This document shows positions 7,104 to 39,578 of a stretch of 64,000 nucleotides of DNA, piece after piece (positions within the stretch are counted from its first letter, which is position 1; each line of letters begins with the position of its first letter). The DNA comes from a phage. Position numbers and translations under genes: made by a program. Location: the sequence record PV467748.1; one strand, given 5' to 3'. Under the pieces are notes generated by a model. It ran no database searches, was not told where the DNA came from, and saw only the letters and a list, made by a program, of their open reading frames with translations.

Positions 7104-7175
7104 AATAATTTCCTCAGTTTTAAATTTATAATCCGTAGGACCATTATACTCTGGTCCCAAGAGTTTGTAAACTAT
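7104..7175 (-). promoter_or_regulatory. early-type promoter plus conserved leader (GTTTAC -35, ~18-bp spacer, TATAAT then GGTCCTACGG, SD GAGGAAATTATT)
   Basis: Minus-strand read: TAGTTTACAAACTCTTGGGACCAGAGTATAATGGTCCTACGG...CTGAGGAAATTATTATG; leader shared with the gene starting at 14376. Confidence 0.5.
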
Positions 7176-7930: not shown

Positions 7931-8109
7931 AATTTGATTTCCTTAGCTATTGAACAAAACACGCTACGGTCACATACCATCATTGGAATATTTCTATGGT
8001 CCAGTACACGATACCATACGTCTGAATCGCTAGCAGCAATTACACGAACCGCACGCCCATTTACCAAATAATACTGGTCGGCTTTAATTTCTTTATCTTG
8101 GATAGTCAT
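7927..8109 (-). CDS. hypothetical protein (60 aa)
   Basis: Track ORF directly downstream of the promoter cassette at 8114-8168, SD GAGGAG. Confidence 0.45.
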   Translation of the reverse strand: MTIQDKEIKADQYYLVNGRAVRVIAASDSDVWYRVLDHRNIPMMVCDRSVFCSIAKEIKL

Positions 8110-8113
8110 AATG

Positions 8114-8168
8114 TTCTCCTCATGTGTTGATAGGATAGACTATAACACGTGAGGAGAGGAAGTAAACA
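8114..8168 (-). promoter_or_regulatory. early promoter cassette (PeSL-like): -35 GTTTAC, 17-bp spacer, -10 TATAGT, inverted-repeat arms ctcctcatgtg/cacgtgaggag enclosing the SD
   Basis: Plus sequence ctcctcatgtgttgataggatagactataacacgtgaggagaggaagtaaacac; member of the repeated family. Confidence 0.6.
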
Positions 8169-9096: not shown

Positions 9097-9570
9097 TCAT
9101 TTAAGCGATTTCCTCAGTTGTTTTTTAAATGAACCGACCATTTGTTTCTTTGTGTCAGATTCATTATAAGTCATTCCATGTGAAAGCATTTCAGCAATCA
9201 TTTCTTCCTTACCTAATCTACTGAACTCTTTGGTTTTATCAGTTACAAAGGTAGGGTGAATAGGATTCTTGGAGCAATCATTCTCGAGGTACGCAACTAG
9301 ATTTTTAAGACACTCGAGGTAGTCGTTGCCACGACCTTTAAGACCAGAGCGTACAAATTGGTGTCTGCTGCGTCCTTCCCAGGCGTTACAAAGATTACAG
9401 AGCAACCCACGAACTCGTCCGGCTTGTGGCCCTTCTAAATCATGAGAGTGGTCTAAGTGGTTACTTTGAACATCCGTATTTAGATGTTGTTTACATACTA
9501 AACACAAGCCCTGTTGGTCTTTGTACATCTGTTCTTTTTGTTCTTTATAAAGCTTGCCAGTCAACAACAT
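9097..9570 (-). CDS. 49: endonuclease VII (Holliday-junction resolvase) gp49
   Basis: 157-aa track ORF MLLTGKLYKEQKEQ...GLLCNLCNAWEG...SFKKQLRKSLK matching recalled T4 gp49 in sequence and exact length. Confidence 0.88.
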   Translation of the reverse strand: MLLTGKLYKEQKEQMYKDQQGLCLVCKQHLNTDVQSNHLDHSHDLEGPQAGRVRGLLCNLCNAWEGRSRHQFVRSGLKGRGNDYLECLKNLVAYLENDCSKNPIHPTFVTDKTKEFSRLGKEEMIAEMLSHGMTYNESDTKKQMVGSFKKQLRKSLK

Positions 9571-9606
9571 AATAAAACCCTTACCATTATTAGATAAGGG
9601 TATTTA

Positions 9607-14376: not shown

Positions 14377-14440
14377 AATAATTTCCTCAGTAAGTAATTA
14401 AGAACCTAGAACCATTATACCATCCTTGGTATAAAGCGTT
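14377..14440 (-). promoter_or_regulatory. middle-promoter-like element (MotA-box-like CGCTTTA, 12 nt, TGgTATAAT) plus conserved leader shared with 7104-7175
   Basis: Minus-strand read: AAACGCTTTATACCAAGGATGGTATAATGGTTCTAGGTTC...CTGAGGAAATTATTATGTCACAGGCAATT. Confidence 0.45.
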
Positions 14441-14964
14441 TATGCGAGAACCGTCTTTAAACGCTCTTCAAATTTCTGAAGCAGAGCTTGGCGTTCAACT
14501 CGTTGTGATTTGTACTGCTCGATACGACCTGAAGTGAGGGCGTACTGTTCGTTTACTGATTCCCGCATGAATTCAGGAATCTCTTTACAAGCTTTGATTT
14601 CGTCAAACTTATCAATAACAGCTTGTTGTTCGGCAATCAGATTATCGAAATAAGCGATATCAGATTTAACGTTTGCCAGGTCGGATTCAGTAGGCATTAA
14701 ACGTTTGTTACGTTCAGCTTGATAAGCTTGATTGTTTTCACGACTCCAGTGAAGAGTACGTTTTTTGTTAGTGTTTTTATAGAGCTCTACAATACCAACT
14801 GAATCGATGACTGCAATCCAGTTCCAACGGCTTTTGTAAATCTCTCCTCCAGATACGGTAATCTCATTACCACAAGCAACGTCGTTAAAGAACTTGCTTT
14901 GTTTTTCAGATTTGAAATTACCATTGTTAAAATTAATCAGTGAAAAAATATCTTTAGCGTTCAT
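14440..14964 (-). CDS. hypothetical protein (174 aa)
   Basis: Track ORF directly downstream of the promoter cassette 14969-15020. Confidence 0.5.
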   Translation of the reverse strand: MNAKDIFSLINFNNGNFKSEKQSKFFNDVACGNEITVSGGEIYKSRWNWIAVIDSVGIVELYKNTNKKRTLHWSRENNQAYQAERNKRLMPTESDLANVKSDIAYFDNLIAEQQAVIDKFDEIKACKEIPEFMRESVNEQYALTSGRIEQYKSQRVERQALLQKFEERLKTVLA

Positions 14965-14968
14965 GATA

Positions 14969-15020
14969 ACCTCCAGTAGTTGATAGGTCTATAGTATCAT
15001 TTCTACTGGAGATGTAAACA
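14969..15020 (-). promoter_or_regulatory. early promoter cassette (PeSL-like): -35 GTTTAC, 17-bp spacer, -10 TACTAT, perfect 9-bp arms ctccagtag/ctactggag
   Basis: Plus cctccagtagttgataggtctatagtatcatttctactggagatgtaaaca. Confidence 0.65.
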
Positions 15021-15021
15021 A

Positions 15022-15363
15022 CTAATAGAAACTTTTTTCACCTGCTTGACCACTAAACCATGCGGATTGAGTGTTCTCTTTCCGTTGGTGTTTAATACGA
15101 ATAAGGTATTCGTTCCTGATGGCGCAGAGTTCATCTCTGAAGTCGACTGCCAACTTAACCTGCTTACGGTCTAGATTTATTAAGGCCTGGGTCTTCGCGG
15201 CCAAGGCCAGTCTCTTGTAGTCTCCTTCTTCACAATCGGTTTTGTAAACCTTCTCGGCGAATTGGTGTTTAAATTCATTATCATAGTCTTCAATAGACTG
15301 TTTCATGGCATTAGAGTATTTCAACTCTGCTTTTATAAGGTCATAACTAAATTGTTCGAACAT
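15022..15363 (-). CDS. hypothetical protein (113 aa)
   Basis: Track ORF. Confidence 0.45.
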   Translation of the reverse strand: MFEQFSYDLIKAELKYSNAMKQSIEDYDNEFKHQFAEKVYKTDCEEGDYKRLALAAKTQALINLDRKQVKLAVDFRDELCAIRNEYLIRIKHQRKENTQSAWFSGQAGEKSFY

Positions 15364-15373
15364 AATTTCACCT

Positions 15374-16354
15374 TTATTTCAGAAGTGTAACTTCAGCGAT
15401 TTCGCTCCAGTCATTTTTATCGGTGGCAATGAAGTCCGCCAGATAAAGAGCCGTACGTAATGATACGTTACGAAGACGAGATACATTGGCCTTCATCCAT
15501 GCTAGAGCTTGATAAGTCTCAGCATCAGTCAGACCTCGGTTTTGCATCATATCAGTGGACAGGATAACGTCTTCAACACGAACCATAATCTCTTCATTCG
15601 AGTGAACTCCGAGGTCTAAGTAAACTGAACGAGATACTAAAGCCTGGAGGTGTGGAGCAAGTTTAGTGCCGCGTTCTAATTCACGGTCAATATCAACGTT
15701 GGTGATGAACACGATGGTGCCTTCATATTCGAATTCTTTATCGATATTTTTATCATCGAGGTAAGAACTTGAAGTGCTCCAGCACACCTTACGTTTTTCA
15801 CCGGTATCCAATGCCGCTTTTAACAGGTTCAGGATATCCATATCAGAGAATACATCGACATCATCGATAAGAAGAACACTATTAGGGCCGCGGTTATTCC
15901 AAAGCTGCTCGTAAAGACCGATTCCACTAATCTTTCCGTTGATTGATTTATATTCGATAGTTTCATTTTCGTGGGCATTCTGTAATGCTTTATCCAAAGA
16001 ATACGTTTTACCAATACCTGCGGCACCAGAGATGATAAGGGAACGAATTTTACCATCGATGATTCCGTTAGTCATCATGTTCATTACTTTAAAACGTTTG
16101 TTGATGCGGTGTTTCATTTCTTCAGCGGATTCAGTAACCACTACAGGAGCTTCAGCACCTTCCATTTCAACATCACATTTGAACACCCATATACCACGTT
16201 CAACACCATCAATCTGTACGAATACCTTGCCATCACCGAGGTGAGCTTCGGATTCATGAATTTTATTAGGGAACCAGGTTTTACCTGAACTCATGAACGT
16301 ACCAGAGATTTCATTACCGCGATAGATACCTTTGTTGATTTTGATAGTTAACAT
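15374..16354 (-). CDS. P-loop ATPase (AAA-like core)
   Basis: Track ORF 15374..16477 trimmed to the ATG (MLTIKINKG...) after SD GGAGAATATA; Walker A GAAGIGKT, Walker B VLLIDDVD, sensor-like FITN. Confidence 0.6.
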   Translation of the reverse strand: MLTIKINKGIYRGNEISGTFMSSGKTWFPNKIHESEAHLGDGKVFVQIDGVERGIWVFKCDVEMEGAEAPVVVTESAEEMKHRINKRFKVMNMMTNGIIDGKIRSLIISGAAGIGKTYSLDKALQNAHENETIEYKSINGKISGIGLYEQLWNNRGPNSVLLIDDVDVFSDMDILNLLKAALDTGEKRKVCWSTSSSYLDDKNIDKEFEYEGTIVFITNVDIDRELERGTKLAPHLQALVSRSVYLDLGVHSNEEIMVRVEDVILSTDMMQNRGLTDAETYQALAWMKANVSRLRNVSLRTALYLADFIATDKNDWSEIAEVTLLK

Positions 16355-16359
16355 TATAT

Positions 16360-16422
16360 TCTCCGTTTCACTCAGTAGATTTGATAGGTCCATAATAACA
16401 TGCTCTACGAGGTTGTAAACAC
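16360..16422 (-). promoter_or_regulatory. early promoter cassette (-35 GTTTAC, 17-bp spacer, -10 TATTAT)
   Basis: Plus ...ctcagtagatttgataggtccataataacatgctctacgaggttgtaaac. Confidence 0.55.
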
Positions 16423-16439
16423 TTTTTTGCACTAAACCC

Positions 16440-16462
16440 AAAAAAAGGACCCCGAAGGGTCC
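16440..16462 (-). terminator. intrinsic terminator (GGACCC-TTCG-GGGTCC then T7 on minus strand)
   Basis: Plus aaaaaaaggaccccgaagggtcc. Confidence 0.6.
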
Positions 16463-16686
16463 TAAATTGCGCTCCAATAATTATGGAAGCGGATATTATT
16501 GATAGCCCAGTTAATACAACGTCTTATCTGCTTAGTCGTAGGCTTGCATACGTACTTGAAATTGATTCTTCTACCGGTTTCTCTACAAACTACTTCAAGA
16601 TACCAACGACAGGTTTTATGAGGTCTTCCATATGACAGGAAAACCTTGATTTCTTCTTTAACGGTAATAAGAGTTGTGGTTGTCAA
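16462..16686 (-). CDS. small basic Cys-rich protein (74 aa)
   Basis: Track ORF; four Cys (CRW...C...C...C); overlaps the 3' end of the upstream gene by 29 nt. Confidence 0.35.
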   Translation of the reverse strand: MTTTTLITVKEEIKVFLSYGRPHKTCRWYLEVVCRETGRRINFKYVCKPTTKQIRRCINWAINNIRFHNYWSAI

Positions 16687-17668
16687 GATACACCTCTTCG
16701 ACGAACTTGTCCCAGAACTTCATGTCTACCTTCTCAGGCATACCGTTCTTAGCAGCCTGGATGGCTAGGACTTCAACCAAATCAACAGTATCTTCAAGAA
16801 GTTCTTGAACTTCTTTAAATGGTAATTCACCGGCTTTAATCAGCTTAATGATAGAGGCTTCACGCAATGGGAACACCAGGTCGCCTGTTTGGTAGATTTC
16901 CAACAATTGATACCCTGCGCGATAAGCATGGCTCAGAGCTTTCCAGTCAATACCTTCGTTAGCTTCAGCTTTACGGGCCCGTTCACCATATTCCGCATCG
17001 AGCTTATTCAGAGATTGCTTGAGCTCGATTAAAGATAAAGTAGTTTGGTACTTACGTCCAAGAACAGTATAGAACGTTTGAGGGCCTGTTTTCTCATGGT
17101 TATGGAATACCCATTCACAGAATTCGTTTTCAGGGAGTCGATGTTTGATATCTTCTACCTTAGTGCGACGTTGCTTAGTAGAACCATCTTCTTGATAATC
17201 AACCCACTGTTCAGGAATCTGGTTGACTATTGCCAGTACACCACGCAGAGCAGCCAGACGAGAACCTTTAACACCATATTTAGAAGCTTGCTTACGGACA
17301 TACCCTAAATAGGCTTTCATGTTGGTTGTATAGAACCGAGAACGGTTGTCTTGGATAAATTTCCATACATCAGGTAAATCAGATTTAACCACCATTTCAG
17401 GCGGAGTGTGGAGCATATCCAGAGCAACGGTTTCGCCATCAGCAGCCAGTTTAAAGAAATATTTCAGGCTATAAAGCTCATGGTCAACATCATCTTTAGT
17501 GTTTTTGGAAGCAGTGTTATTCGTGTTCAGGTTGGTATGGTTCATAGCCGTACCTAACAGAATATCACGCGGATGCGGAACAAAGATTTCTTTAAAATCG
17601 ATATCAGATTCCGGAGTACTTGTTCCATAAAGGTGGCTACCGAAGTAGCCCTTCATAATTGTTCTCAT
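16658..17668 (-). CDS. nucleotidyltransferase-fold protein (pol-beta superfamily motif GS-x10-SDIDF)
   Basis: Track ORF 16658..17698 starts at GTG; trimmed to the first ATG (MRTIMKGYFGSHLYGTSTPESDIDF...). Confidence 0.55.
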   Translation of the reverse strand: MRTIMKGYFGSHLYGTSTPESDIDFKEIFVPHPRDILLGTAMNHTNLNTNNTASKNTKDDVDHELYSLKYFFKLAADGETVALDMLHTPPEMVVKSDLPDVWKFIQDNRSRFYTTNMKAYLGYVRKQASKYGVKGSRLAALRGVLAIVNQIPEQWVDYQEDGSTKQRRTKVEDIKHRLPENEFCEWVFHNHEKTGPQTFYTVLGRKYQTTLSLIELKQSLNKLDAEYGERARKAEANEGIDWKALSHAYRAGYQLLEIYQTGDLVFPLREASIIKLIKAGELPFKEVQELLEDTVDLVEVLAIQAAKNGMPEKVDMKFWDKFVEEVYLDNHNSYYR

Positions 17669-18117
17669 TCTTTGTTCTCGAAGTGGATTACAGGACACAT
17701 CTTAGATTTACGAGCTTTAATGTATTGAATAACGATATTTTCTTTAGTTTCTCGGCCTTCACGCTCAGCTTGAATACGTTGCCATTCCTTTTCTTCTCTA
17801 CGGGCATCATACCATGCGTGTAAATTCATCGCACCAAATGCCAAACCGATGGATAGTGCAATAATAAGAGCTATTGTAATCAACCCTAAAGCAAACCCTA
17901 GACTCAACAGAACAGGAGTACTTAATACAAAGAAATGCTCTAATACCCCAGCGCCTGCAACAGTTAATCCAAAAAGCGTACTACCTGCAACAACAGCACA
18001 AGCAAAACAAGCCCAAACCATTTTCCAGAAATAAGCACACAAAGAGTGTGGTCGAGAATGACGGTCATAAAAACGGTCGTGTAATTTAACGTGCCAAGAG
18101 TTTGTGTTGATAATCAT
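17665..18117 (-). CDS. membrane protein (150 aa, about three TM helices)
   Basis: Track ORF with hydrophobic stretches FACAVVAGSTLFGLTVAGAGVL and LSLGFALGLITIALIIALSIGLAF. Confidence 0.5.
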   Translation of the reverse strand: MIINTNSWHVKLHDRFYDRHSRPHSLCAYFWKMVWACFACAVVAGSTLFGLTVAGAGVLEHFFVLSTPVLLSLGFALGLITIALIIALSIGLAFGAMNLHAWYDARREEKEWQRIQAEREGRETKENIVIQYIKARKSKMCPVIHFENKE

Positions 18118-18127
18118 AATATTTTCC

Positions 18128-18688
18128 TTAAGAGTTCATAGTTGGGATAACAGAGTTCAGATAAGAGACTAAAGCCTTGAGCTCGTCTTTAGTAAATACC
18201 ACTTCACTTTCACCATCGTGTCTTTGGGTCAAGGATAGCAAATCACGACCCTGATATTGATACACGGTTAATTCAGTATCATAATCCAGTTCTTCTTCGT
18301 CGCCTTCAAAGGTTTCACTAGAGCGAATTACAGCATCTTGACCAGGCACTTTCCATTCGACTTCTGGCTTGCATTCTTCCTGGAACAGTTTGAAAATACA
18401 ATCAAAGAATTTATCAGAATCGCTGATGCTCAGACATTCAATACCATTTTCCAGATTAAACCCAGTTTCATTTTTATAGATATAGGCAAACACATCATCA
18501 TTGATATCGATAGGAGCACTATGTCGACCGTTAAGATAATCGTGTCTATCTAAAACCATTAAATCATAAAGCGGTTTAATATCAGCGATAGTCAGTACGA
18601 TTTTATCGTCTTCTTGTGAAAGCTCAATTGCGTTATTAACTACTTCAGCGGACAGTTCGCCAAACAATTCAGTTGTTTCAATAATCAT
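18128..18688 (-). CDS. hypothetical highly acidic protein (186 aa)
   Basis: Track ORF; D/E-rich throughout. Confidence 0.5.
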   Translation of the reverse strand: MIIETTELFGELSAEVVNNAIELSQEDDKIVLTIADIKPLYDLMVLDRHDYLNGRHSAPIDINDDVFAYIYKNETGFNLENGIECLSISDSDKFFDCIFKLFQEECKPEVEWKVPGQDAVIRSSETFEGDEEELDYDTELTVYQYQGRDLLSLTQRHDGESEVVFTKDELKALVSYLNSVIPTMNS

Positions 18689-18698
18689 TTTCTATTCC

Positions 18699-18896
18699 TC
18701 AACGGTTATGTTTTAAAATACTATAAAGCTCTTCGACTTGGTCTGCATTCAGACAAATCATATCATTTTCTTGTTGGAGCGTAATTCCACCTTTTTCTTC
18801 CCAATCTTTAACAAAGACGTCATCGTCAGATTCTTCAACATCTGCTAAAAGGGCAATCACACCATCTTCAGAACAACCATTTGGATCGTATAACAT
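18699..18896 (-). CDS. hypothetical acidic protein (65 aa)
   Basis: Track ORF. Confidence 0.4.
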   Translation of the reverse strand: MLYDPNGCSEDGVIALLADVEESDDDVFVKDWEEKGGITLQQENDMICLNADQVEELYSILKHNR

Positions 18897-19016
18897 TTAC
18901 AATTTCCTCGCTAACCATGAAAAGAATAAACCGATTAAAATAGGGCCTATAATCATTGTTGACCAAGCCCAGGGTTCTAAGTAATAAATCATCTCATACT
19001 CCTGTGCCAATAGCCA

Positions 19017-19199
19017 TTATGCTTTCAACTCATTAAGATACTCAACCAATGCCGCTTTAGAGTTATCCAAATCTCGTTTACACTGCTCTATTGCGGAATA
19101 TGAATAGCCTTCACAATGTTCTACTGCACTATCATAAGAATCACGTTCAATAGCAGTAGCCAGTTTAAGGATTTGTTCAATCTGTTCAGTAGTTAACAT
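19017..19199 (-). CDS. hypothetical protein (60 aa)
   Basis: Track ORF. Confidence 0.4.
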   Translation of the reverse strand: MLTTEQIEQILKLATAIERDSYDSAVEHCEGYSYSAIEQCKRDLDNSKAALVEYLNELKA

Positions 19200-19203
19200 A
19201 TTA

Positions 19204-19440
19204 TCACCAGTATTTGTTGATGGTAGAAATCAATTCTTGGGCTTGAGTAGTCTTCAGCTTACACCCACAACCCTTTAATGTATCTTTAAGGAGCCATGGT
19301 TCCTTGAGCTCGTCCTTTTCTAGGCGAATTCTGTATCCTCGATAATCGACAAAGATGCTTTGGTCGTCGAATATCTTAACCTCAAGAAGGCGGTTATTAA
19401 TTTCATATTCTAATGAAACCGTAGTACTTGTAAGTTTCAT
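19204..19440 (-). CDS. hypothetical protein (78 aa)
   Basis: Track ORF directly downstream of promoter cassette 19446-19498, SD GAGGAG. Confidence 0.5.
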   Translation of the reverse strand: MKLTSTTVSLEYEINNRLLEVKIFDDQSIFVDYRGYRIRLEKDELKEPWLLKDTLKGCGCKLKTTQAQELISTINKYW

Positions 19441-19445
19441 TTTGT

Positions 19446-19498
19446 TCTCCTCATTAGTTGATAGGTCTATAGTATCACGTTCCTAGAGGATGTAAACA
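19446..19498 (-). promoter_or_regulatory. early promoter cassette (PeSL-like): -35 GTTTAC, 17-bp spacer, -10 TACTAT, imperfect arms
   Basis: Plus tctcctcattagttgataggtctatagtatcacgttcctagaggatgtaaaca. Confidence 0.6.
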
Positions 19499-19506
19499 CC
19501 TAAACG

Positions 19507-19532
19507 AAAAAAGGTCCCACCGAAGTGAGACC
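19507..19532 (-). terminator. intrinsic terminator (GGTCTCAC-TTCG-GTGGGACC then T6 on minus strand)
   Basis: Plus aaaaaaggtcccaccgaagtgagacc. Confidence 0.6.
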
Positions 19533-19537
19533 TTTGA

Positions 19538-19921
19538 TTATTCTAACGTTAACAAATATTTAGTCTGGTAAAAGACACCAGTGATATCGTCCAAAGTCGA
19601 CTGGATGGCCTTAGGAAGTGTATCATAGATTTTATCAGATGCTTTAAGAAGCTCGTCAAGAAAATCTACCGGGTCCTTAGGCAAGTCTGAAGCAGACGGT
19701 AATGATGCTTTATATTCTTTGCCACTGAATCCGAGATATTGCTCACTAAATTGGTCCAGTGGTCCTTGAACTTCTACATAATAGAAGTCATACGCTTTGT
19801 GTCTTGCATAGCTTTTGGTTTCTAAATGGGCTGACTTAAAATAGGCTAAAGAAACCAGTAGCCAACCAATATAAGAATCCACTTCAGACCCTCGACCGGG
19901 TACGAAATCATTGAACTTCAT
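19538..19921 (-). CDS. hypothetical protein (127 aa; rI.-1 position)
   Basis: Track ORF immediately downstream of the rI-like gene. Confidence 0.45.
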   Translation of the reverse strand: MKFNDFVPGRGSEVDSYIGWLLVSLAYFKSAHLETKSYARHKAYDFYYVEVQGPLDQFSEQYLGFSGKEYKASLPSASDLPKDPVDFLDELLKASDKIYDTLPKAIQSTLDDITGVFYQTKYLLTLE

Positions 19922-20201
19922 CTTCCACCTTCATTAGTTTTGCATAACGCTCTCCGATGGCACGACCTTCAATTGAGCATGTTTCTACAGTCTGACAACT
20001 TGAAATCTTCCAGGAAGCCGTAACATAGGCCCAATAGTCTTCGGAGGCCTTTACGCTAGGTCTACTCATTTGCGCATAAACAGGCATCGCACTACTAGCA
20101 AATGCATCCATCAATTTATCATGAGTATTATTTGCTAGTGAAACTGTAGGGCTTAAACATCCCGCCATAAGGATACAAGCCGCTGTACGGAAAATATCCA
20201 T
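19908..20201 (-). CDS. rI: lysis-inhibition regulator RI-like periplasmic protein
   Basis: 97-aa track ORF, same length as T4 RI; N-terminal hydrophobic signal-anchor; C-terminal pattern resembles recalled T4 RI; located just downstream of tk. Confidence 0.5.
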   Translation of the reverse strand: MDIFRTAACILMAGCLSPTVSLANNTHDKLMDAFASSAMPVYAQMSRPSVKASEDYWAYVTASWKISSCQTVETCSIEGRAIGERYAKLMKVEDEVQ

Positions 20202-20293
20202 ACAAAAGTCCTTTGTTGTTTTATACTATTTGCCTTTCGGCCTTAACCGATAGCGATTACCAAAAGCTAAAGCTCTACGGTTAGTATTATTAT

Positions 20294-20572
20294 TTATAGC
20301 TTTTTAAGCTTACGACAATAAGAATAGAACACGTCGTTAAAATTATGCTCAGCCCAATTCCTCTGTATAGGCGAGGTAATGGAAAGCATATAATGGGCTT
20401 TAATTAAGTCCATCCCATTTTTATTAGGACATTCTTTATTATTAGCATTATACGTCGCCGCTACAACCTCTATCTCTCTTTTGTAAGCCACCTCATCCAT
20501 GATAGGCGAAAGAACAATATAAGAAATAGCCACAGCGAACGCTAGAATTAAAATCTTTGAATTTAGGTCCAT
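20294..20572 (-). CDS. small membrane/secreted protein (92 aa)
   Basis: Track ORF with N-terminal hydrophobic segment ILILAFAVAISYIVLSPI. Confidence 0.45.
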   Translation of the reverse strand: MDLNSKILILAFAVAISYIVLSPIMDEVAYKREIEVVAATYNANNKECPNKNGMDLIKAHYMLSITSPIQRNWAEHNFNDVFYSYCRKLKKL

Positions 20573-20579
20573 AGTACCC

Positions 20580-21152
20580 TCAACTCGTTATTTCTATCCA
20601 GTGCTTCCTGCACAATGACACGTAAGAATCGTTGCCACCTATAGAAACTTGGGCTCCGTCCTTAATTGCGACACCATCTTGGACCCTAGCAGTCATAGTA
20701 GCTTTACGGCCGCAATGGCACACACCTTTGTACTCAACGAGTTTATCTGCCGTAGCGAGTAATTCAGCAGAACCAGGAAACAGTTTACCCTGAAAATCAG
20801 TTCTTAGCCCATAGCACATAACTGGAACATTATAATTGTCTACTATCTTTGCCAGTTGTTTTATCTGTGCAGGTTCTAAGAACTGTGCTTCATCCACAAA
20901 CACACAGTGGATATCTTTTTGAGATTCAGCCCAACGATAGAACTCGTATAGGTCCATATCCGGAGTCACTGCATTAGCCTCTTGACTAATCCCTATACGA
21001 GACGAAATGGTATGGCTTGATTCTCTATTGTCTATCGCAGGCTTTAAAAGGAGCACGCCCATACCACGTTCTTTGTAGTTATGAGCTGCCGTTAGCAATG
21101 AAGCGGTCTTACCTGAGTTCATTGCCGCATAGTGAAACATCAAACTTGCCAT
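20580..21152 (-). CDS. tk: thymidine kinase
   Basis: 190-aa track ORF MASLMFHYAAMNSGKTASLL...VFVDEAQF...CHCGRKA...CRKHW, closely matching recalled T4 Tk. Confidence 0.9.
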   Translation of the reverse strand: MASLMFHYAAMNSGKTASLLTAAHNYKERGMGVLLLKPAIDNRESSHTISSRIGISQEANAVTPDMDLYEFYRWAESQKDIHCVFVDEAQFLEPAQIKQLAKIVDNYNVPVMCYGLRTDFQGKLFPGSAELLATADKLVEYKGVCHCGRKATMTARVQDGVAIKDGAQVSIGGNDSYVSLCRKHWIEITS

Positions 21153-21877
21153 TTAGATACAATTCCTCTATAAGAACAATCAGGATAACCTTTATTCAGG
21201 GCTATCTTTTTAAACATATATGCCGAGGGCTTATTAGATTCTTCCCATAGCATTTTCAATTCGTCATAATATTTCCAAGCCTCATTTCTAATAGGAGAAG
21301 GTTTTCCTTTCATTGCACCTTGTTTACCAAACATAGGATTCTTTTCACCCTTTTTAGAATCACTCATGTTTTTAATAGTAGCACATGAATGCTTAAAGCC
21401 TTTTAATTTTTTAGAGGCTTGCCCTATTTTAGCTTTATGTTCGTCTGTAAACCCTATTCTATTTGAATAGTGGTTCTGGCCTTTATTAGAAGTAGTGTGT
21501 TTAGAAGCTTCTATCCTCGCGTCGCTCCATTTAACTCCTTTTTTAGACCTAGACATTTTATATTTGGTCAATAAAGATAACTTGGACCCTTTCTTTTTAC
21601 CACGTCCGCCATCAGCAAAATTTAAGGAATGTTTTCCATATTTTAATTTAGCTTTTTCTACTAAAGGAACTTCAGCGTCGTAAGCTTCATCCTCAGTTTC
21701 AAAGAATTTTAATATACGGGTTTTATAAGGGTGTTTTTTGCAAATATTTTTAACAACAGTACCACTTCCAAAATACCCATCAGAAAGATTATCGGTAGAA
21801 TGTTTTCCTACGTAATAATAGTTGGCCTTGAGGGTTTTTATTACAGTTAAATAATTATAATGGAATTCCTTTACCAT
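21140..21877 (-). mobile_element. free-standing GIY-YIG homing endonuclease gene (Seg-like) upstream of tk
   Basis: 245-aa track ORF with N-terminal GIY-YIG-type motifs (YYYVGKHST...YFGSG) and K-rich NUMOD-like repeats; its 3' end overlaps the tk start. Confidence 0.65.
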
Positions 21878-21886
21878 ATTACCTTC

Positions 21887-22081
21887 TTAAAGACTATTCA
21901 CATAAGCAATTAATTCATTTTCTTTTTTAGAAAACTCATCTTCTTCATCACCATACGCATCCCAAGGAAGAGAGTTATCTAATTCACATTCTGTATTGAG
22001 TTCCATAAGCTCATGGATAAGCTCAAACAATTTATCTTTCTGTTCTTTACTCAGACTCATAACCATTGCACCTTTAAGCAA
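21887..22081 (-). CDS. hypothetical acidic protein (64 aa)
   Basis: Track ORF. Confidence 0.4.
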   Translation of the reverse strand: MLKGAMVMSLSKEQKDKLFELIHELMELNTECELDNSLPWDAYGDEEDEFSKKENELIAYVNSL

Positions 22082-22269
22082 TATTCTTCTACATGCTGTT
22101 TACGTTTATTTTTATCTATAAAAGTATATTCAACATATTCACCGATATACCATTTATCAGTATTGTGTTGACTTTTTATAGGGCATTTAGTTACTCGTGT
22201 TTCGGTCCAGTGCCGAATAATTTCCGCTTTGTTTTTAGGGTCAAATGGATGCGGGTAATGTGCTTTCAT
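22057..22269 (-). CDS. hypothetical protein (70 aa)
   Basis: Track ORF. Confidence 0.4.
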   Translation of the reverse strand: MKAHYPHPFDPKNKAEIIRHWTETRVTKCPIKSQHNTDKWYIGEYVEYTFIDKNKRKQHVEEYCLKVQWL

Positions 22270-22720
22270 AATCCACCACTATTAAATCAATATCAGGAGT
22301 AAACATGTCGATTAATTTAGAAACCTTGTCCCAATCACCGCCAGCAATACCACAACCTATACGAGGAATATAAATTCTTGGTTTAAACAAAAGGTCATTT
22401 GCTTGTAGATTTAATTCTATCATACAGTTTACTAAAGCACCGTAATCAAGATTAGGGCCTGGTTCGTATTGGGTATATAAATTATAGCACATTGCAAATC
22501 CATTAGGCTTATGTTTAAAAACAATAGACATATCACCTAATTTATCTCGAGAGCCGTATTCGGTAGTAGTCTTATCAATTTCTAAAATTTTAGGATAAGC
22601 TCTTGCTAATTGACCTGCTACACCTGAACCCATAGTGTGAAAACAGTTGCACCCATGTGCAATAATATTACCTTGGAGAAACAGGGCGACGATATCGCCC
22701 TTAATATAATTAATAATCAT
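22241..22720 (-). CDS. macro-domain protein (ADP-ribose binding/processing fold)
   Basis: 159-aa track ORF with GDIV...NIIAHGCNCFHTMGSGVAGQLA and later IPRIGCGIAGGDW, matching the macro-domain glycine-rich loops. Confidence 0.6.
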   Translation of the reverse strand: MIINYIKGDIVALFLQGNIIAHGCNCFHTMGSGVAGQLARAYPKILEIDKTTTEYGSRDKLGDMSIVFKHKPNGFAMCYNLYTQYEPGPNLDYGALVNCMIELNLQANDLLFKPRIYIPRIGCGIAGGDWDKVSKLIDMFTPDIDLIVVDYESTLPASI

Positions 22721-23073
22721 TTAGAGTTTAGTCCTCGGTTGTAAGAGTCAACGAGTCTGTCTACCATAGACGCGCACATTTCTTTGTACTTTTTATCAGA
22801 TGGAACACATTCAGTAACGTTTAGACGTTGCTCGTATCTTTTAGAAAGAGTTTTCTCTTTCATTCGGCGATGCTCGACGTCGTTCTGTCCATCTTTAAAA
22901 GCAGCTGTTATTTTTGAACTGAATTCAATAACACATTCAGTATTACTAGGATGACAATAATCTTTTGCTGTACGGGTAGCATACTCGACAATTGAATTAT
23001 TACTATCACCAACTTGTGACGCTAATACTCCCGGAGCAATCAACATAAGCGCTATAGTCATCTGTTTAATCAT
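22717..23073 (-). CDS. secreted/periplasmic protein with signal peptide (118 aa)
   Basis: Track ORF; N-terminus MIKQMTIALMLIAPGVLASQ. Confidence 0.5.
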   Translation of the reverse strand: MIKQMTIALMLIAPGVLASQVGDSNNSIVEYATRTAKDYCHPSNTECVIEFSSKITAAFKDGQNDVEHRRMKEKTLSKRYEQRLNVTECVPSDKKYKEMCASMVDRLVDSYNRGLNSK

Positions 23074-23613
23074 TTAATATACCGCCTCAAACATCTTTTT
23101 AGATTTTAGGTAATTGGCCTTTTCTAGAACTTCGGAAGCATATTTACTGCCTGCTTTGACGTCCCAGCCCGCATTATAAGAAGCAATCGCTTTTCTCAGG
23201 TCACCTTTGTGAACATCAATCCAATAAGACAGTTCAATGTAGGCCCAAGAGGCACTGTTCTGTCGTTTTTGGACCATACGAATTATTTCTTTATCAGACA
23301 TCTTCCAACCTACCTGTTGAACACGACTTCTTAACGTAGGCAAGTAATTTTGGAACATGCCATAAGCATGGTGCTTATCTTTATTTAAACCCTGATTAAT
23401 TCCGGCGGATGATTCCTGCCATAGTAATCCGGCCATGATATATCCTAATCCTTTTTGATTAGGGTTTTCTTTGAACTTTCCCGACTTTTGGTATTGTTCA
23501 CCGAAAGCATACGCATAATGTAAATTGTCGAGCTGCTCACTGTTGAAAGTAGGCTCTACGCTATAGGCAGACATACTAACTGTCAATAGTAAAGTGGCTA
23601 ATACTTTTTTCAT
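23074..23613 (-). CDS. periplasmic lytic-transglycosylase-like protein (SLT domain)
   Basis: 179-aa track ORF with signal peptide MKKVLATLLLTVSMSAYS and motifs WQESS, YGMFQ, SYNAGW typical of SLT lysozyme-like domains. Confidence 0.55.
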   Translation of the reverse strand: MKKVLATLLLTVSMSAYSVEPTFNSEQLDNLHYAYAFGEQYQKSGKFKENPNQKGLGYIMAGLLWQESSAGINQGLNKDKHHAYGMFQNYLPTLRSRVQQVGWKMSDKEIIRMVQKRQNSASWAYIELSYWIDVHKGDLRKAIASYNAGWDVKAGSKYASEVLEKANYLKSKKMFEAVY

Positions 23614-23625
23614 GAGTCCTCATTA

Positions 23626-24084
23626 TTAAAGATAGATTACTTTCGTGCTGGTTTTACCTTCTAAACGTTTAGAGTTAACAAATGCCATACGACATTTTAA
23701 TGAATATCCTTTATCAGGATGTTTACGATCTACGGTCATACCCAACCATAAGGTTTTATCGGTAATCTCGAGACGCAGTGGGCGATACACTTTACCAGGG
23801 ACAATTTCAGATTCTATGTCAGGAAGAGGCTCCTGGATTAAAAATTCATGGATTTCTTTAACATGATTGTGGAGCTTCTTGAACAAAGAGAAAACGTATT
23901 TTTCGTCAATTTCACGTTGGATAGCACGGTCCAACAGGTGATTAGAGTACTTAATAAAGAAAGCTGGGACCCCGCTCTTGATGGCGGCTTTTTTGATGGA
24001 CGCGTTAAGTTCACGAAATTCGGTTTCGAACTGACGACGTAATTTGTTGCGGCGGATGAATACTTCTGAATTAATTTCTGACAT
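23626..24084 (-). CDS. regB: endoribonuclease RegB
   Basis: 152-aa track ORF MSEINSEVFIRRNKLRRQFETEFR...LDRAIQREIDEKYVF... closely matching recalled T4 RegB. Confidence 0.88.
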   Translation of the reverse strand: MSEINSEVFIRRNKLRRQFETEFRELNASIKKAAIKSGVPAFFIKYSNHLLDRAIQREIDEKYVFSLFKKLHNHVKEIHEFLIQEPLPDIESEIVPGKVYRPLRLEITDKTLWLGMTVDRKHPDKGYSLKCRMAFVNSKRLEGKTSTKVIYL

Positions 24085-24091
24085 TTTGTAA

Positions 24092-24141
24092 TCTCCTGTA
24101 GTTGATAGGTCTATAGTACCACGTCTACAGGAGATGTAAAC
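24092..24141 (-). promoter_or_regulatory. early promoter cassette (PeSL-like): -35 GTTTAC, 17-bp spacer, -10 TACTAT, perfect arms ctcctgtag/ctacaggag
   Basis: Plus ctcctgtagttgataggtctatagtaccacgtctacaggagatgtaaac, immediately upstream of regB. Confidence 0.65.
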
Positions 24142-24145
24142 TGCT

Positions 24146-24355
24146 TTATTCTTGGAATGGGGTAAGTTTTCCGACAGCAGAACAAATTTCTACCAGCACC
24201 GGATAAAACTCTTTCACCTGTTCAAGGCGCTGGGCTGCGTACTGCAATTCACCTTCTTCAATACAAGCCGTTTGGTCGTCAAGCAAGTATTTGTGGTAGC
24301 CGGTACAGGCTTCACCGATGATGCGTTGGAATTCTTGCAAACTTTCGATTTTCAT
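24146..24355 (-). CDS. hypothetical protein (~69 aa)
   Basis: Track ORF 24146..24397 trimmed to an internal ATG that abuts the upstream stop. Confidence 0.35.
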   Translation of the reverse strand: MKIESLQEFQRIIGEACTGYHKYLLDDQTACIEEGELQYAAQRLEQVKEFYPVLVEICSAVGKLTPFQE

Positions 24356-24633
24356 TAGTATTTCTCTTCCGGTTGGAAAACGGAACGACAGGCCCACATA
24401 CTAGCTTCTTTAAGACGGTCAATTGCATTACGAATCTGGGTAATGCGTTCATGAGCCTGGTCTAGTTCTTGTTCAGAAACCTCTTCGGCATCTAAGTTCA
24501 TATAATAGGTAACATGTTCTTCTTCTAATGCTTTAAAGATTAAGCCTAATCGAACTTCGGCATCTTTAATAGCATTCACTTTACTGATTTTGTCATCGGT
24601 ATGTGGCTTATAACCTTTGATATCTTCAATCAT
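24355..24633 (-). CDS. hypothetical protein (92 aa)
   Basis: Track ORF. Confidence 0.45.
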   Translation of the reverse strand: MIEDIKGYKPHTDDKISKVNAIKDAEVRLGLIFKALEEEHVTYYMNLDAEEVSEQELDQAHERITQIRNAIDRLKEASMWACRSVFQPEEKY

Positions 24634-24848
24634 TTCACTTCCTCACCTGTTCCAATATCATATTCTACCAAACGAAGGCCGTCAGTCCAGCCTTGCACCG
24701 AGATATACGTAGTCGGGTAAATCACTTCTTTACCATTCCACTGACCGCCGTCCCAGACTTCCAGAAAGTCTTGTTCACCCGGCCCATTAAACCATTCAAC
24801 AAATCTCTTCAGAGCTTCATCAGAGCCTTCAATTGTCAATTTAGACAT
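24630..24848 (-). CDS. hypothetical protein (72 aa)
   Basis: Track ORF. Confidence 0.45.
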   Translation of the reverse strand: MSKLTIEGSDEALKRFVEWFNGPGEQDFLEVWDGGQWNGKEVIYPTTYISVQGWTDGLRLVEYDIGTGEEVK

Positions 24849-25137
24849 ATTTTTTCCAGTCAGAAATCATATGAATCTCTTGGTCATACGTCAAGAGACT
24901 GCGAGTAATAATACCCTTACACGGCCCAGAGATGAACTCGAGAGTGAAGTAAGGAACCTGTTTCATTAATCGGATGCTTGGGGCATGACATCTAAAACGA
25001 GAGCCCTTAAAGGGCCCTGACATGAATACATATTCTAATGGATAGAAATAAGCATATTCGAAATTTGCAGTAAGGTCCTCTCTTCGAACCTTACGTGAGA
25101 AATAACAGAACTCAAAAAGTTCTTCATCAGTCATCAT
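24841..25137 (-). CDS. hypothetical protein (98 aa)
   Basis: Track ORF. Confidence 0.45.
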   Translation of the reverse strand: MMTDEELFEFCYFSRKVRREDLTANFEYAYFYPLEYVFMSGPFKGSRFRCHAPSIRLMKQVPYFTLEFISGPCKGIITRSLLTYDQEIHMISDWKKYV

Positions 25138-25661
25138 TGCATTCCTATCACAAAGAACAGCGGCAGAGGTTTAGAACCCTGGCACATAAATTTGTTAATC
25201 ATTACCTGGTAAGCTTCATAGAACTTATCCATCGATGGAAGGCGCATTGGCTCTTCGATAATAATCAATAATCGAGTAACTGATAGACCACGATACTTAT
25301 GGAAGTTATCTTCGTCTAAAAATGATCGCACGGTATCATATACAATAAACCCAGGACCTTCTACTTGAAGATGTGGATGAGCCTTAGAAACCCTTTTTAT
25401 TACATTACAGATTTCGCGTGACCGGTGCGAAGAACTCGACATAACAATCACATCATTACCCTTGGAAACCCAATCAGCTGCGAACTGGGCAAGGGCACTT
25501 GTTTTACCTGTTTGGCGTCCACCGTCAAGTCGAAGAGTACCAAACTCTTGCATTCTTGAAGTAGGTTCGTACCAGGTGTATTGGTTTGAGTCTAAACGTT
25601 CAATGGCGCGTTCAGCGAAGGCGTGCATTAAGGTTAGATAAATGGGAGTTAAAAATTTCAT
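25134..25661 (-). CDS. small P-loop NTPase (175 aa)
   Basis: Track ORF with Walker A GGRQTGKTSA and Walker-B-like LLIIIEEP. Confidence 0.5.
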   Translation of the reverse strand: MKFLTPIYLTLMHAFAERAIERLDSNQYTWYEPTSRMQEFGTLRLDGGRQTGKTSALAQFAADWVSKGNDVIVMSSSSHRSREICNVIKRVSKAHPHLQVEGPGFIVYDTVRSFLDEDNFHKYRGLSVTRLLIIIEEPMRLPSMDKFYEAYQVMINKFMCQGSKPLPLFFVIGMQ

Positions 25662-25810
25662 AGTGGTCTCTTAGTTGTGGGGCCATTCCTTGGCACATAA
25701 TTCATCCCTTTCTGCATTTACCCATTACCGCACTTGGGCTCGACCTTATTACAGGTTGGCGGGAGTCCCTCACAGAATTGTGAGGTCCAGGTTGCTCCCA
25801 TTTTTAAAGA
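25662..25810 (-). other. 149-nt structured intergenic region with a nested ~40-nt stem-loop and no promoter cassette
   Basis: Plus 25759-25800 gcgggagtccctcacagaattgtgaggtccaggttgctccc has outer arms GGGAG/CTCCC and inner arms CCTCACA/TGTGAGG. Confidence 0.35.
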
Positions 25811-26170
25811 TTAAAGATGGTCGAGTGCCGGGTTATGAGGCTTTTCTGCTTTAGCAGTATTTTTGTGCCAATCTGATTTAGAAACACGAATTGCATCCGC
25901 ACCGTAAGAGCTCTTAAGGAGGCCCTTTTTATTGTAAACACTTATAGAAGTAAGGGTGTCACCATTCCAAGTAGCATGGACGAAGTTGGATTTAGATTTA
26001 AGTTCTTTAGCCAGGCTCTGGTTGGTAGCCATGGAAGCAAAGTCTTTACCTGTAACTTTAAAAACTTCAGATGGGTTCAGCCCTTCTTTAGCCTTAGCCA
26101 ATTGTTCAGGAGACATAGCTTCGTTAATGCGCTGAGTAGATTCAGTAATAAATTGTTGGTAAGTTTTCAT
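25811..26170 (-). CDS. internal-protein-like gene with capsid-targeting sequence (CTS), 119 aa
   Basis: Track ORF starting MKTYQQFITE, matching the T4 internal-protein N-terminal CTS and prohead-protease site pattern [IL]-x-E. Confidence 0.6.
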   Translation of the reverse strand: MKTYQQFITESTQRINEAMSPEQLAKAKEGLNPSEVFKVTGKDFASMATNQSLAKELKSKSNFVHATWNGDTLTSISVYNKKGLLKSSYGADAIRVSKSDWHKNTAKAEKPHNPALDHL

Positions 26171-26212
26171 ATTATTCCTTAAGTTGATAGAAGTATTCTA
26201 TCACGGATTTAA

Positions 26213-26629
26213 TTAAGCGTAAATAGCCTTGCCGTAATGTTTGTACCAGGTAGGACGCTGTGCAATTTTTTCGTCCAAACGAGCTTGTGAAATGGCGATA
26301 GAAGCTTCGTGAGGAACATAATCACCACGGAATTCCTGAGGAATGTCACTAATGTCCTGGACCGTAGTATCCTTGATATTAAAGCCACGTTTTAAACATT
26401 CAGCTATAAGCTCAATTTGACGCTTACGTAAAAATTCAAGCTTATCATAAAAGAATGTAACGTGGCCTGTACCAAGGATAAAAGTAGGACTGATTTTAAA
26501 ATCACGAACACGTTTACCGTTAGCAACATGCTTACGAACTGCACCGAAAACACGTGGTAATTCACGATATTCGGCCATTAAGTGTTGGTCAGCCAATTCA
26601 GATACTAAGGTAAGGTTGATACGAGTCAT
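26213..26629 (-). CDS. denV: endonuclease V (pyrimidine-dimer DNA glycosylase) DenV
   Basis: 138-aa track [37 protein letters not shown]... essentially identical to recalled T4 DenV. Confidence 0.92.
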
Positions 26630-26635
26630 TTTTAA

Positions 26636-26686
26636 TCTCCTGTAGTTGATAGGTCTATAGTATCATGCCTACAGGAGATGTACACT
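26636..26686 (-). promoter_or_regulatory. early promoter cassette (PeSL-like): -35 GTGTAC, 17-bp spacer, -10 TACTAT, perfect arms ctcctgtag/ctacaggag
   Basis: Plus ctcctgtagttgataggtctatagtatcatgcctacaggagatgtacac, immediately upstream of denV. Confidence 0.6.
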
Positions 26687-27789: not shown

Positions 27790-28270
27790 ATGCTTTCCAA
27801 GTACCTGTTTTAAATGTTGAAATCACGCGCTTAGCACGGTTAGGAGTTTGCTTGTACCAACGAGATTGAGCCAGGTTAACTGCCGCATCGTTCCAACGTT
27901 TCTGTTGGAGCATACGTAAAGAGTTAGTGAACCCTGCTACACCTGCTTCACCCATTTGGAAGACCATATTAATCAATGCGCAACGACGAACTTCGTCCAA
28001 CACATCATAAACCGGTTTCAATTTAGGATTACGCATTATAGCTCTACGAGCATTTTCCACTGAACGATTAAAGAGTTGTTCGGCTTCAGCCATAGTAATA
28101 CGACCATTACAAACTCGACCCATAAGCTTATCAAGTTCAGCGCGGGCAACATCTTTAGATGGGTTCTTGGTAACTAACTGGCCAATACCAATAGTCCAAT
28201 AACCTTCAGTGTCTTTATAAAGATTTAAATCAAGACCTTCGTCTTGACGTAACATATCAAAAATATCCAT
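27776..28270 (-). CDS. e: lysozyme (endolysin) e
   Basis: 164-aa track [35 protein letters not shown]... closely matching recalled T4 lysozyme in sequence and length. Confidence 0.92.
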
Positions 28271-28274
28271 AATA

Positions 28275-28300
28275 CCTCCTGAGTATAGGAGGTATTTATA
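28275..28300 (-). promoter_or_regulatory. late promoter TATAAATA with SD-sequestering hairpin (CCTCCT/AGGAGG) for gene e
   Basis: Minus-strand read GATATAAATACCTCCTATACTCAGGAGGTATTATG; same architecture as described for T4 gene e. Confidence 0.6.
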
Positions 28301-30493: not shown

Positions 30494-30551
30494 TTTCACT
30501 CTGTTGTTTTGATAGGTCTATAGTATCACACCTATAGACCTTGTACACTGT
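30494..30551 (-). promoter_or_regulatory. early promoter cassette variant with internal 10-bp palindrome aggtctatag/ctatagacct (-35 GTGTAC, -10 TACTAT)
   Basis: Plus ctctgttgttttgataggtctatagtatcacacctatagaccttgtacac. Confidence 0.55.
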
Positions 30552-35159: not shown

Positions 35160-35216
35160 TGGTATTTTGTAATCCATGAGGACATTATACCCTGTCCTCT
35201 GAGGGGTGTAAACATT
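35160..35216 (-). promoter_or_regulatory. early promoter (-35 GTTTAC, 18-bp spacer, -10 TATAAT) with arms GAGGAC/GTCCTC flanking the -10
   Basis: Minus-strand read GTTTACACCCCTCAGAGGACAGGGTATAATGTCCTCATGG. Confidence 0.55.
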
Positions 35217-35617: not shown

Positions 35618-35675
35618 TATGTTCTCCTCAAATTATGGGCTCATAATATCTTAATCATGGGCCCATGTAAACGTT

Positions 35676-37651: not shown

Positions 37652-37656
37652 GTAGT

Positions 37657-39519: not shown

Positions 39520-39578
39520 CGTGTGGTTGGTTTGTTTTGATAGGTCTATAGGCATGATACTATAGACCTTGTAAACAC
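39520..39578 (-). promoter_or_regulatory. early promoter cassette variant with internal palindrome aggtctatag/ctatagacct (-35 GTTTAC)
   Basis: Plus ttttgataggtctataggcatgatactatagaccttgtaaacacc. Confidence 0.5.

Follow-up and report, generated by a model that had tools for sequence, protein, structure and literature searches.

We analyzed a 64,000-nucleotide (nt) stretch of phage DNA (sequence record PV467748.1; hereafter the window) for the inverted repeats that surround the -10 elements of its early promoters. The window is DNA of a T4-like phage of the Dhakavirus type; over a stretch of 8 kb, it shares 93-96% identity with coliphages of this type, e.g., QL01, IME540, and fDHCT2. Genes between ~5 and 41 kb lie on the minus strand, and all sequences below are written in the sense orientation, i.e., as the reverse complement of the given strand. 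Four cassettes, all on the minus strand, adjoin the starts of nrdC.8, regB, denV, and an open reading frame (ORF) of 60 amino acids. They are composite early-promoter/stem-loop cassettes of the promoter-early stem-loop (PeSL) type, a family already described in T4-type phages (Arbiol et al., 2010, PMC2839356; Comeau et al., 2014, PMC4122927).

Each cassette comprises, in order, a -35 element (GTTTAC, or GTGTAC at denV), a spacer of 17 nt (N17), a -10 element (TACTAT or TATAGT) with a TGn extension, the discriminator/leader AGACCTATCAA, an arm bearing the Shine-Dalgarno sequence (SD), and the ATG. The SD and start codon of the downstream gene thereby form the 3' end of the cassette; an A-rich stretch lies upstream of the promoter, and the cassettes recur between small early ORFs. 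The spacer contains an arm of 11-13 nt, starting one nt past the -35, that is complementary to a second arm made up of the SD plus its 5' flank, and the -10 sits in the loop of the resulting hairpin. An 18-nt core of the cassette has nine matches in the window compared to 0.07 expected. A promoter scan called three of the four cassettes (-35 at 8167, 15019, and 24141); the denV cassette, with its GTGTAC, was not called.

A first-pass annotation of the window had reported four inverted-repeat copies, at 14969, 24092, 26636, and 8114, whose arms differ in sequence yet remain complementary. All four exist, and the stems are longer than claimed: 11 bp at nrdC.8, including one U.G pair, and 11 bp in the stem common to regB and denV. 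The copy at 8114, for which one mismatch had been noted, is a 13-bp stem with one C.A mismatch. The annotation placed the SD in the right arm, which holds for the sense (minus) strand; on the plus strand, the SD arm has the lower coordinates. The conserved core also contains an inner 5-bp helix, in which UGAUA of the extended -10 pairs with UAUCA of the leader (e.g., window 14982-15000). This cuts the effective loop to 9 nt and may help explain the strong conservation of the ...CTATCAA leader, both here and in T4 early promoters.

Since the 5' arm lies in the interval separating -35 from -10, a transcript from the cassette's own promoter should lack this arm, whereas RNA reading through from upstream contains both. 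We compared the predicted folds of a long RNA (from the -35 to ATG+12) and a short RNA (from the expected start, 7 nt past the -10), computing SD accessibility in the long RNA with 40 nt of upstream context. The long RNAs of the four cassettes fold at -18.3 to -21.6 kcal/mol (z = -3.1 to -4.2), compared to -1.4 to -2.3 kcal/mol and z near 0 for the short RNAs. Mean predicted probabilities that the SD is unpaired, P(SD unpaired), are 0.00 in all four long RNAs and 0.23-0.67 in the short ones (Table 1). Read-through into the cassettes is to be expected, since upstream terminator-like sites are few and weak: three of the four have none at or just upstream of them, and the cassette at 8167 has a weak 6-bp site at 8186-8201, upstream of its -35. 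The hairpins themselves are not intrinsic terminators, an identity ruled out by the absence of both a U tract and a terminator call: the stems are followed by the tails GUUAUCAUG, UUACAAAAUG, UUAAAAAUG, and ACAUUAUG, none of which is a U tract, and none of the four is among the 19 terminator-like sites listed for the window.

Table 1. Hairpin elements of the window, with predicted folding energies and SD accessibility in long (read-through) and short (own-promoter) RNA.
Feature	Coordinates	Strand	Components	Basis or remark	Fold energy, kcal/mol (long; short)	P(SD unpaired) (long; short)
SD-masking cassette of nrdC.8 (ORF 14440-14964)	14962..15019	-	-35 GTTTAC 15014-15019; 5' arm AUCUCCAGUAG 15003-15013; -10 TACTAT 14991-14996; 3' arm with SD CUACUGGAGGU 14969-14979; ATG 14962-14964	Sequence; gene name by synteny with QL01 NrdC.8	-19.5 (z = -4.2); -2.2	0.00; 0.23
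SD-masking cassette of regB (ORF 23626-24084)	24082..24141	-	-35 24136-24141; 5' arm AUCUCCUGUAG 24125-24135; -10 24113-24118; 3' arm CUACAGGAGAU 24091-24101; ATG 24082-24084	Pfam REGB_T4, E = 2e-69	-18.3; -1.4	0.00; 0.64
SD-masking cassette of denV (ORF 26213-26629)	26627..26685	-	-35 GTGTAC 26680-26685; 5' arm 26669-26679; -10 26657-26662; 3' arm with SD 26635-26645; ATG 26627-26629	Pfam Pyr_excise	-18.9; -1.6	0.00; 0.31
SD-masking cassette of 60-amino-acid ORF (7927-8109)	8107..8167	-	-35 8162-8167; 5' arm UCUCCUCACGUGU 8145-8157; -10 TATAGT 8139-8144; 3' arm ACACAUGAGGAGA 8115-8127; ATG 8107-8109	Sequence, fold	-21.6 (z = -4.2); -2.3	0.00; 0.67
Sibling cassette, SD pairing only partial	19438..19497	-	CCUC/GAGG plus UAG/CUA, with bulge			0.32; 0.69
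Gene e leader	28268..28300	-	Late promoter TATAAATA 28293-28300; 5' arm AAUACCUCCU 28287-28296; loop 28281-28286; 3' arm with SD AGGAGGUAUU 28271-28280; ATG 28268-28270	ORF 27776-28270 matches Phage_lysozyme; 10-bp hairpin in fold		
-10-bracketing cassette	30514..30548	-	Spacer arm AGGUCUAUAG 30532-30541; CUAUAGACCU 30514-30523 (3' half of -10 plus discriminator)	10-bp hairpin; SD 31 nt further on, outside helix	-16.9	
-10-bracketing hairpin	39542..39576	-	AGGUCUAUAG 39560-39569; CUAUAGACCU 39542-39551		-15.4 (z = -4.6)	
-10-bracketing hairpin around TATAAT	35178..35213	-	GAGGACA 35193-35199; UGUCCUC 35178-35184			
-10-bracketing hairpin	35635..35672	-	AUGGGCCCAUGAU 35654-35666; AUUAUGAGCCCAU 35635-35647	Equivalent hairpin at T4 e.7 promoter		
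-10-bracketing hairpin	7138..7172	-	GGACCA 7152-7157; UGGUCC 7138-7143			

Comparative analysis indicates that pairing between the arms has been maintained while their sequences diverged. We drew 73 related loci from IMG/VR using a 17-nt core that excludes the arms; together with the window (window plus L001-L073), these yielded 147 distinct early-promoter cassettes representing 56 loci. In 11 cassettes that agree in geometry, 97.5% of the cells of the 11-bp helix are paired, and 5 of the 11 pairs show compensatory changes on both sides. None of 500 shuffles scored as high for covariation, and in controls with the partner shifted by 1-3 columns, pairing fell to 34-57%. Across the 56 loci, spacers paired with their own downstream regions gave a mean free-energy difference (ddG) of -7.06 kcal/mol compared to -4.29 kcal/mol with non-cognate regions (z = -8.6; 0/100000 permutations). 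An inverted repeat between spacer and downstream region scoring at least 6 occurs in 75 of the 147 cassettes, and z-scores of cassette folds range from -2.4 to -4.6. Related phages contain further perfectly complementary arms, i.e., AUUAG/CUAAU, UUCUCCUCAUG/CAUGAGGAGAA, and UUCUCCUCUGGUU/AACCAGAGGAGAA. Chance or common descent alone is ruled out by the permutation test, the covariation counts, and the unrelated arms found at orthologous genes.

The kind of pairing retained points to RNA. When G.U pairs and A.C mismatches were penalised equally, the distinct arm pairs contained 16 internal G.U pairs compared to two A.C mismatches, or ~8:2 when recurring spacer types were counted once. This excess suggests a structure in sense-strand RNA rather than duplex DNA, and such RNA can only be read-through RNA. 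The same ratio bears on whether the inverted repeat acts instead at the level of DNA, whether by forming a cruciform, by serving as a hairpin recombination hot spot, or by binding a dimeric protein at the promoter. PeSLs do recombine to mini-circles, and the crossovers have been located within or close to the stem-loop (PMC2839356); spacer types also appear to have been swapped between loci. Yet the bias implies that only one strand is under selection, the arms vary freely while pairing persists, unlike a protein-binding site, and loops of 23 nt are unfavourable for cruciform extrusion; we therefore consider a DNA-level role very improbable.

The design also extends across lineages of the same genes. 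In T4, the SDs of regB and nrdC.8 are predicted to be masked by different arms (UCCUCUUGACUG/CAGUUAAGAGGA and GUUCCUCUGU/ACGGAGGAAC, respectively), and the denV cassette is the same as that of the window. Masking is likewise predicted in five lineages of regB orthologues whose arms differ; one of them has a 15-bp helix, and two have a nested arrangement of an inner -10 hairpin and an outer UCUCC/GGAGA helix. For denV, an early promoter was recognisable in 31 distinct upstream regions; in 30 of these, predicted P(SD unpaired) is at most 0.10 in the long RNA compared to 0.29-0.88 in the short RNA. The partner of the denV SD lies in the spacer (-28 to -23 from the predicted start) in 17 regions and on the -10/discriminator (-4 to +1) in the others, whose 3' arms often reach over the AUG, and the orthologues use at least 10 different arm sequences. 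The most telling point for selection of SD masking itself is that the hairpin class is stable for each gene while the arm sequences turn over.

With moderate confidence, we read the four hairpins as gene-specific gates that would limit translation to promoter-proximal early transcripts, in a mirror image of T4 gene e. In this model, a sigma-70 early promoter is built into a hairpin that would sequester the initiation region of its own gene (nrdC.8, regB, denV, or the 60-amino-acid ORF): the 5' arm, with its anti-SD CUCC, fills the -35/-10 spacer, the loop holds the -10, and the SD forms the 3' arm. Start sites, folding in the cell, translational silencing, and its timing are inferred. Polymerase arriving from upstream would transcribe both arms, and the hairpin would fold once the SD emerges, excluding the 30S subunit from the cistron. 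The GGAG in such read-through RNA would probably be shielded from the RegB nuclease as well, because structure inhibits this enzyme. RNA from the cassette's own promoter would start ~7 nt past the -10, lack the 5' arm, and present an open leader of 20-23 nt. T4 early promoters are off after 2-3 min of infection, and regB “must be tightly regulated” (PMC3014915); as read-through and middle-mode transcription go on past this point, these genes would in effect be translated only during the immediate-early burst. In gene e, by contrast, a late promoter within the hairpin confines translation to late times.

A broader version of this model is one that we hold more tentatively, as possible but somewhat doubtful. 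It would make the hairpin a Tevenvirinae-wide gate for immediate-early genes (regB, denV, nrdC.8, and others), in which the choice of start site sets both translation and exposure of GGAG to RegB, and hence the expression window. Such a gate would be the early-only counterpart of gene e and would make the output of a mobile cassette independent of its position in the genome.

Translation of the upstream gene could in principle undo such a gate, in that a ribosome terminating at the upstream stop codon might melt the 5' arm and thereby activate the downstream SD in read-through RNA. In three of the four cassettes, the upstream stop codon does precede the -35 by 1-4 nt. The distance from stop codon to 5' arm is nevertheless 9-12 nt in three cassettes and ~33 nt at denV, and a terminating ribosome unwinds roughly 5-9 nt. 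These distances are beyond or at the edge of ribosome unwinding, which would melt no more than 1-2 of the 11-13 pairs. Opening of the helix by a terminating ribosome is therefore unlikely, and we give translational coupling of this kind very little credence.

Several observations weigh against a gating role. Of 47 distinct arm pairs counted (score of at least 6), only 15 fall into the SD-masking class, i.e., end at most 9 nt from the ATG; the other 32 join the spacer to the -10/discriminator and leave the SD free. Hiding the SD is therefore not what the hairpins of this family do in general, the notion that all early-promoter hairpins hide an SD is ruled out, and something besides SD hiding also selects for hairpins at early promoters. 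Even among orthologues of the masked genes, one regB lineage (L081-083) has only the inner -10-bracketing hairpin, one nrdC.8 lineage (L098-100) has a -10-bracketing hairpin only, and the arm of an apparently recombinant nrdC.8 cassette (L065; IMG/VR 641509422) tolerates one U.C mismatch. SD pairing is, moreover, barely higher with cognate than with non-cognate spacers (0.30 vs 0.27; z = 1.1), which leaves cognate-specific SD pairing as such unsupported; this weak specificity arises because CTCC/CCTC is common in spacers. Across 47 kb of QL01, SDs predicted to be masked occur at 6/17 promoter junctions and 15/76 other junctions, which is not a significant enrichment (p = 0.20), so SD masking is likewise unsupported as a general signature of such junctions. 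The position-specific CTCC could also be a promoter-spacer preference unrelated to RNA.

In a more generic explanation, the hairpin is an ordinary PeSL stem-loop, acting as a terminator, attenuator, or 3'-end stabiliser for incoming RNA and as a recombination module, and its 3' arm lands on the SD by chance where the leader is short. PeSL stem-loops have been read as terminators/attenuators and recombination modules (PMC2839356, PMC4122927); they are located in the -35/-10 interval or overlap the -10, and one from RB49 cut downstream lacZ as strongly as rrnB T1 (PMC2839356). In our sample, two thirds of the arm pairs bracket only the -10, and promoter hairpins and upstream T-runs are nearly mutually exclusive: a T5 run within 30 nt upstream of the -35 was found at 7/75 hairpin promoters compared to 34/72 hairpin-less promoters (Fisher p = 3e-7), or 6/37 vs 19/41 when counted by locus (p = 0.007). 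Promoter hairpins and upstream intrinsic terminators thus look like alternative ways to handle incoming transcripts. At several loci, the spacer type differs between phages, and L065 itself resembles a recombinant cassette, with a spacer arm of the CUCCAUUAG type joined to a CUACUGGAG leader, consistent with exchange between cassettes inside the conserved core.

A generic stem-loop accounts less well for the SD-masking class itself. The stems lack a U tract and none was called terminator-like. Both arm types occur with the same conserved core, which means that alternative partners exist and the SD type is not imposed by their absence. The anti-SD motif CTCC/CCTC occurs in 19 of the 56 spacers compared to 2.9 expected (0/5000 shuffles), an approximately six-fold enrichment that falls mostly at spacer position 3, whereas the sense motif GGAG/GAGG occurs in only four. 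An exact complement of at least 8 nt to the SD region is present for 37% of cognate pairs compared to 5.4% for the SD regions of other loci; the cognate-specific part is only this extension beyond the CUCC/GGAG core. The SD class is also kept gene by gene across lineages despite complete arm turnover, and some regB and denV lineages hold both the inner -10 hairpin and the outer SD helix. We consequently regard the generic explanation as unlikely for the four cassettes, if still a serious contender; an attenuator or stabiliser is still needed for the -10-bracketing class and may extend to the SD class. The first-pass annotation had proposed that read-through transcripts would fold a hairpin over the SD and that RNA from the cassette's own promoter would lack the left arm. 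This interpretation is partly supported: geometry, predicted accessibility, and comparative evidence favour it at these genes, but it does not generalize to the family, its pairing is barely cognate-specific, and predicted masking is not significantly commoner at promoter junctions.

RegB offers a further explanation, namely that the chief role of the helix is to keep the SD's GGAG away from RegB/S1 in long polycistronic RNA, preserving downstream cistrons, with loss of translation as a side effect. RegB cuts GGAG in early SDs, with the consensus GGAGRAYARAA, and is inhibited by secondary structure (PMC3014915, PMC1702504); many SDs here fit this consensus (GGAGAAYAAAA), and regB is itself among the four masked genes. 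The nrdC.8 SD (GGAGGUUAUC), however, lacks the A-rich 3' element, and T4 denV RNA has been classed as RegB-resistant and unstructured, with resistance ascribed to a missing 3' sequence element (PMC1702504). Burial of the AUG in many denV lineages would also be needless for shielding. Shielding as the main function therefore appears improbable, although it is compatible with translational gating.

The cassettes share much with described PeSLs: a repeated intergenic module of an AT-rich stretch, a strong sigma-70-type early promoter, a stem-loop, an SD, and an ATG; the placement of the stem-loop; clustering of modules among small early ORFs; and possible signs that copies have been exchanged. 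PeSL-like sequences have also been noted in JS98, a relative of the window phage. The cassettes also differ from the published accounts. Stem-loops of T4 and PST were placed just upstream of the promoter (PMC4122927), whereas we find inverted repeats bracketing the -10 in T4 too. In the SD-masking subclass, moreover, the 3' arm is the SD, and the arms are gene-specific and covarying; the words “translation” and “ribosome” are absent from the main text of the 2010 study (PMC2839356).

The closest mechanistic parallel is with the T4 genes e, soc, 49, and I-TevI, which have hairpins that sequester the translation initiation region (TIR) and contain an internal promoter (reviewed in PMC3014915). 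In both systems, the SD and/or AUG is buried in a helix of the long transcript (here a prediction), and a promoter inside the structure yields a shorter, translated RNA without the 5' strand (here expected from the geometry). The inner promoter of the known systems is late (gp55, TATAAATA), such that the gate opens late, whereas that of the cassettes is of the early sigma-70 type, with the arm in the -35/-10 spacer. The known systems are supported experimentally, whereas sequestration in the present cassettes is predicted from sequences and folds. The first-pass annotation had likened the cassettes to gene e: the likeness applies to a predicted sequestering hairpin with an internal promoter, but not to the promoter class. 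It also correctly placed a gene e hairpin in the window; we locate this upstream of the Phage_lysozyme ORF (Table 1), with TATAAATA overlapping the 5' arm. Only this copy has TATAAATA, the inner promoters of the SD-masking cassettes being of the GTTTAC/TACTAT early type. Hairpins of comparable size silence gene e ~100-fold. In 2009, Gibb and Edgell reportedly described a hairpin sequestering the ribosome-binding site of mobE in phage Aeh1. This likewise hides the initiation site of a gene embedded in a longer T4-type phage transcript, but concerns a single homing-endonuclease gene with no repeated promoter cassette and an arm outside the promoter spacer.

The window also contains a homologue of gene 49 (endonuclease VII; ORF 9097-9570), with a hairpin, ACCCUUAUCUAAUAAUGGUAAGGGU, directly before the start at 9577-9601 (minus strand). 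This matches the known TIR-sequestering structure of T4 gene 49, and the scan lists it as terminator-like. RegB/S1 sites resemble the masked SDs in that GGAG-type SDs with A-rich spacers occur here and structure is known to protect such sites; they differ in being a nuclease target motif rather than a structure, access to which the hairpin would modulate. Many SD-to-ATG stretches (cassettes at 19440, 30482, 39169, 16354, and 35942) read GGAGAAYAAAAUG, perfect or near-perfect matches to the RegB/S1 consensus.

Both the PeSL family and the placement of a promoter inside a TIR-sequestering hairpin (genes e, soc, 49, and I-TevI) are thus known already. The cassettes combine the two: the spacer of an early sigma-70 promoter encodes an anti-SD arm specific to the gene, and this arrangement is conserved across Tevenvirinae at regB and denV. 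We did not find this combination described in the literature covered, which misses key older sources, such that a prior description of the regB or denV hairpins is possible; nor did we find a genome-wide map of T4 start sites there. If correct, the gating model would add an extra post-transcriptional layer to T4-type early control, one apparently not spelled out in the classic literature. Synthesis of some early proteins, notably the RegB RNase and endonuclease V, would be limited to promoter-proximal transcripts and thus to the first minutes of infection. It would also refine the view of PeSL stem-loops as terminators/attenuators: a module that silences read-through translation would carry its own expression level, which would help explain how cassettes can be shuffled safely. 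As regB, denV, and nrdC.8 of T4 have the same design, the model is directly testable in T4.

Beyond the four SD-masking cassettes, almost every strong early promoter in the window has an inverted repeat that puts the -10 in or near the loop, in several registers. Hairpins of the -10-bracketing class are predicted to form only in read-through RNA and to be absent from the own-promoter transcript, with the SD outside the helix. T4 trna.4, e.7, ipI, ipII (14 bp), and ipIII are of this type, like their counterparts in the window. Orthologous cassettes at the 7138..7172 locus have the compensatory variants GGAGCA/UGCUCC and GAGAGCA/UGCUCUC, and relatives contain an 11-bp -10-bracketing stem with a GUGA tetraloop (GGUCUAUGGUA-GUGA-UACUAUAGACC). 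At 39537-39576, an intact -35 and a 10-bp hairpin are accompanied by a degenerate -10 (GCCTAT), resembling the “half PeSLs” of Comeau et al. (2014). Two other readings of the promoter repeats were dropped: a MotA box in the spacer type CTTTAAACATGA, which lies ~7 nt from the -10 rather than the required 11-13 nt, and a divergent opposite-strand promoter from the inverted -10 copy, which has no -35 partner.

The sibling cassette at 19438..19497 lies just downstream of a true intrinsic terminator (19510-19535). In the whole window, only two tRNAs reach the gathering score of an Rfam family; the cassettes match none, which rules out a known RNA family. The two tRNA genes are at 37580-37733 on the minus strand. 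A further composite element precedes the denV homologue in jumbo-phage contigs of 345-378 kb (L128, L132, L134, and L138), where a strong terminator hairpin (GGGUUGACUUCGGUCAGCCCUUUUU) has a TTGAC -35 within its stem, TATAAT follows, and the SD is not masked.

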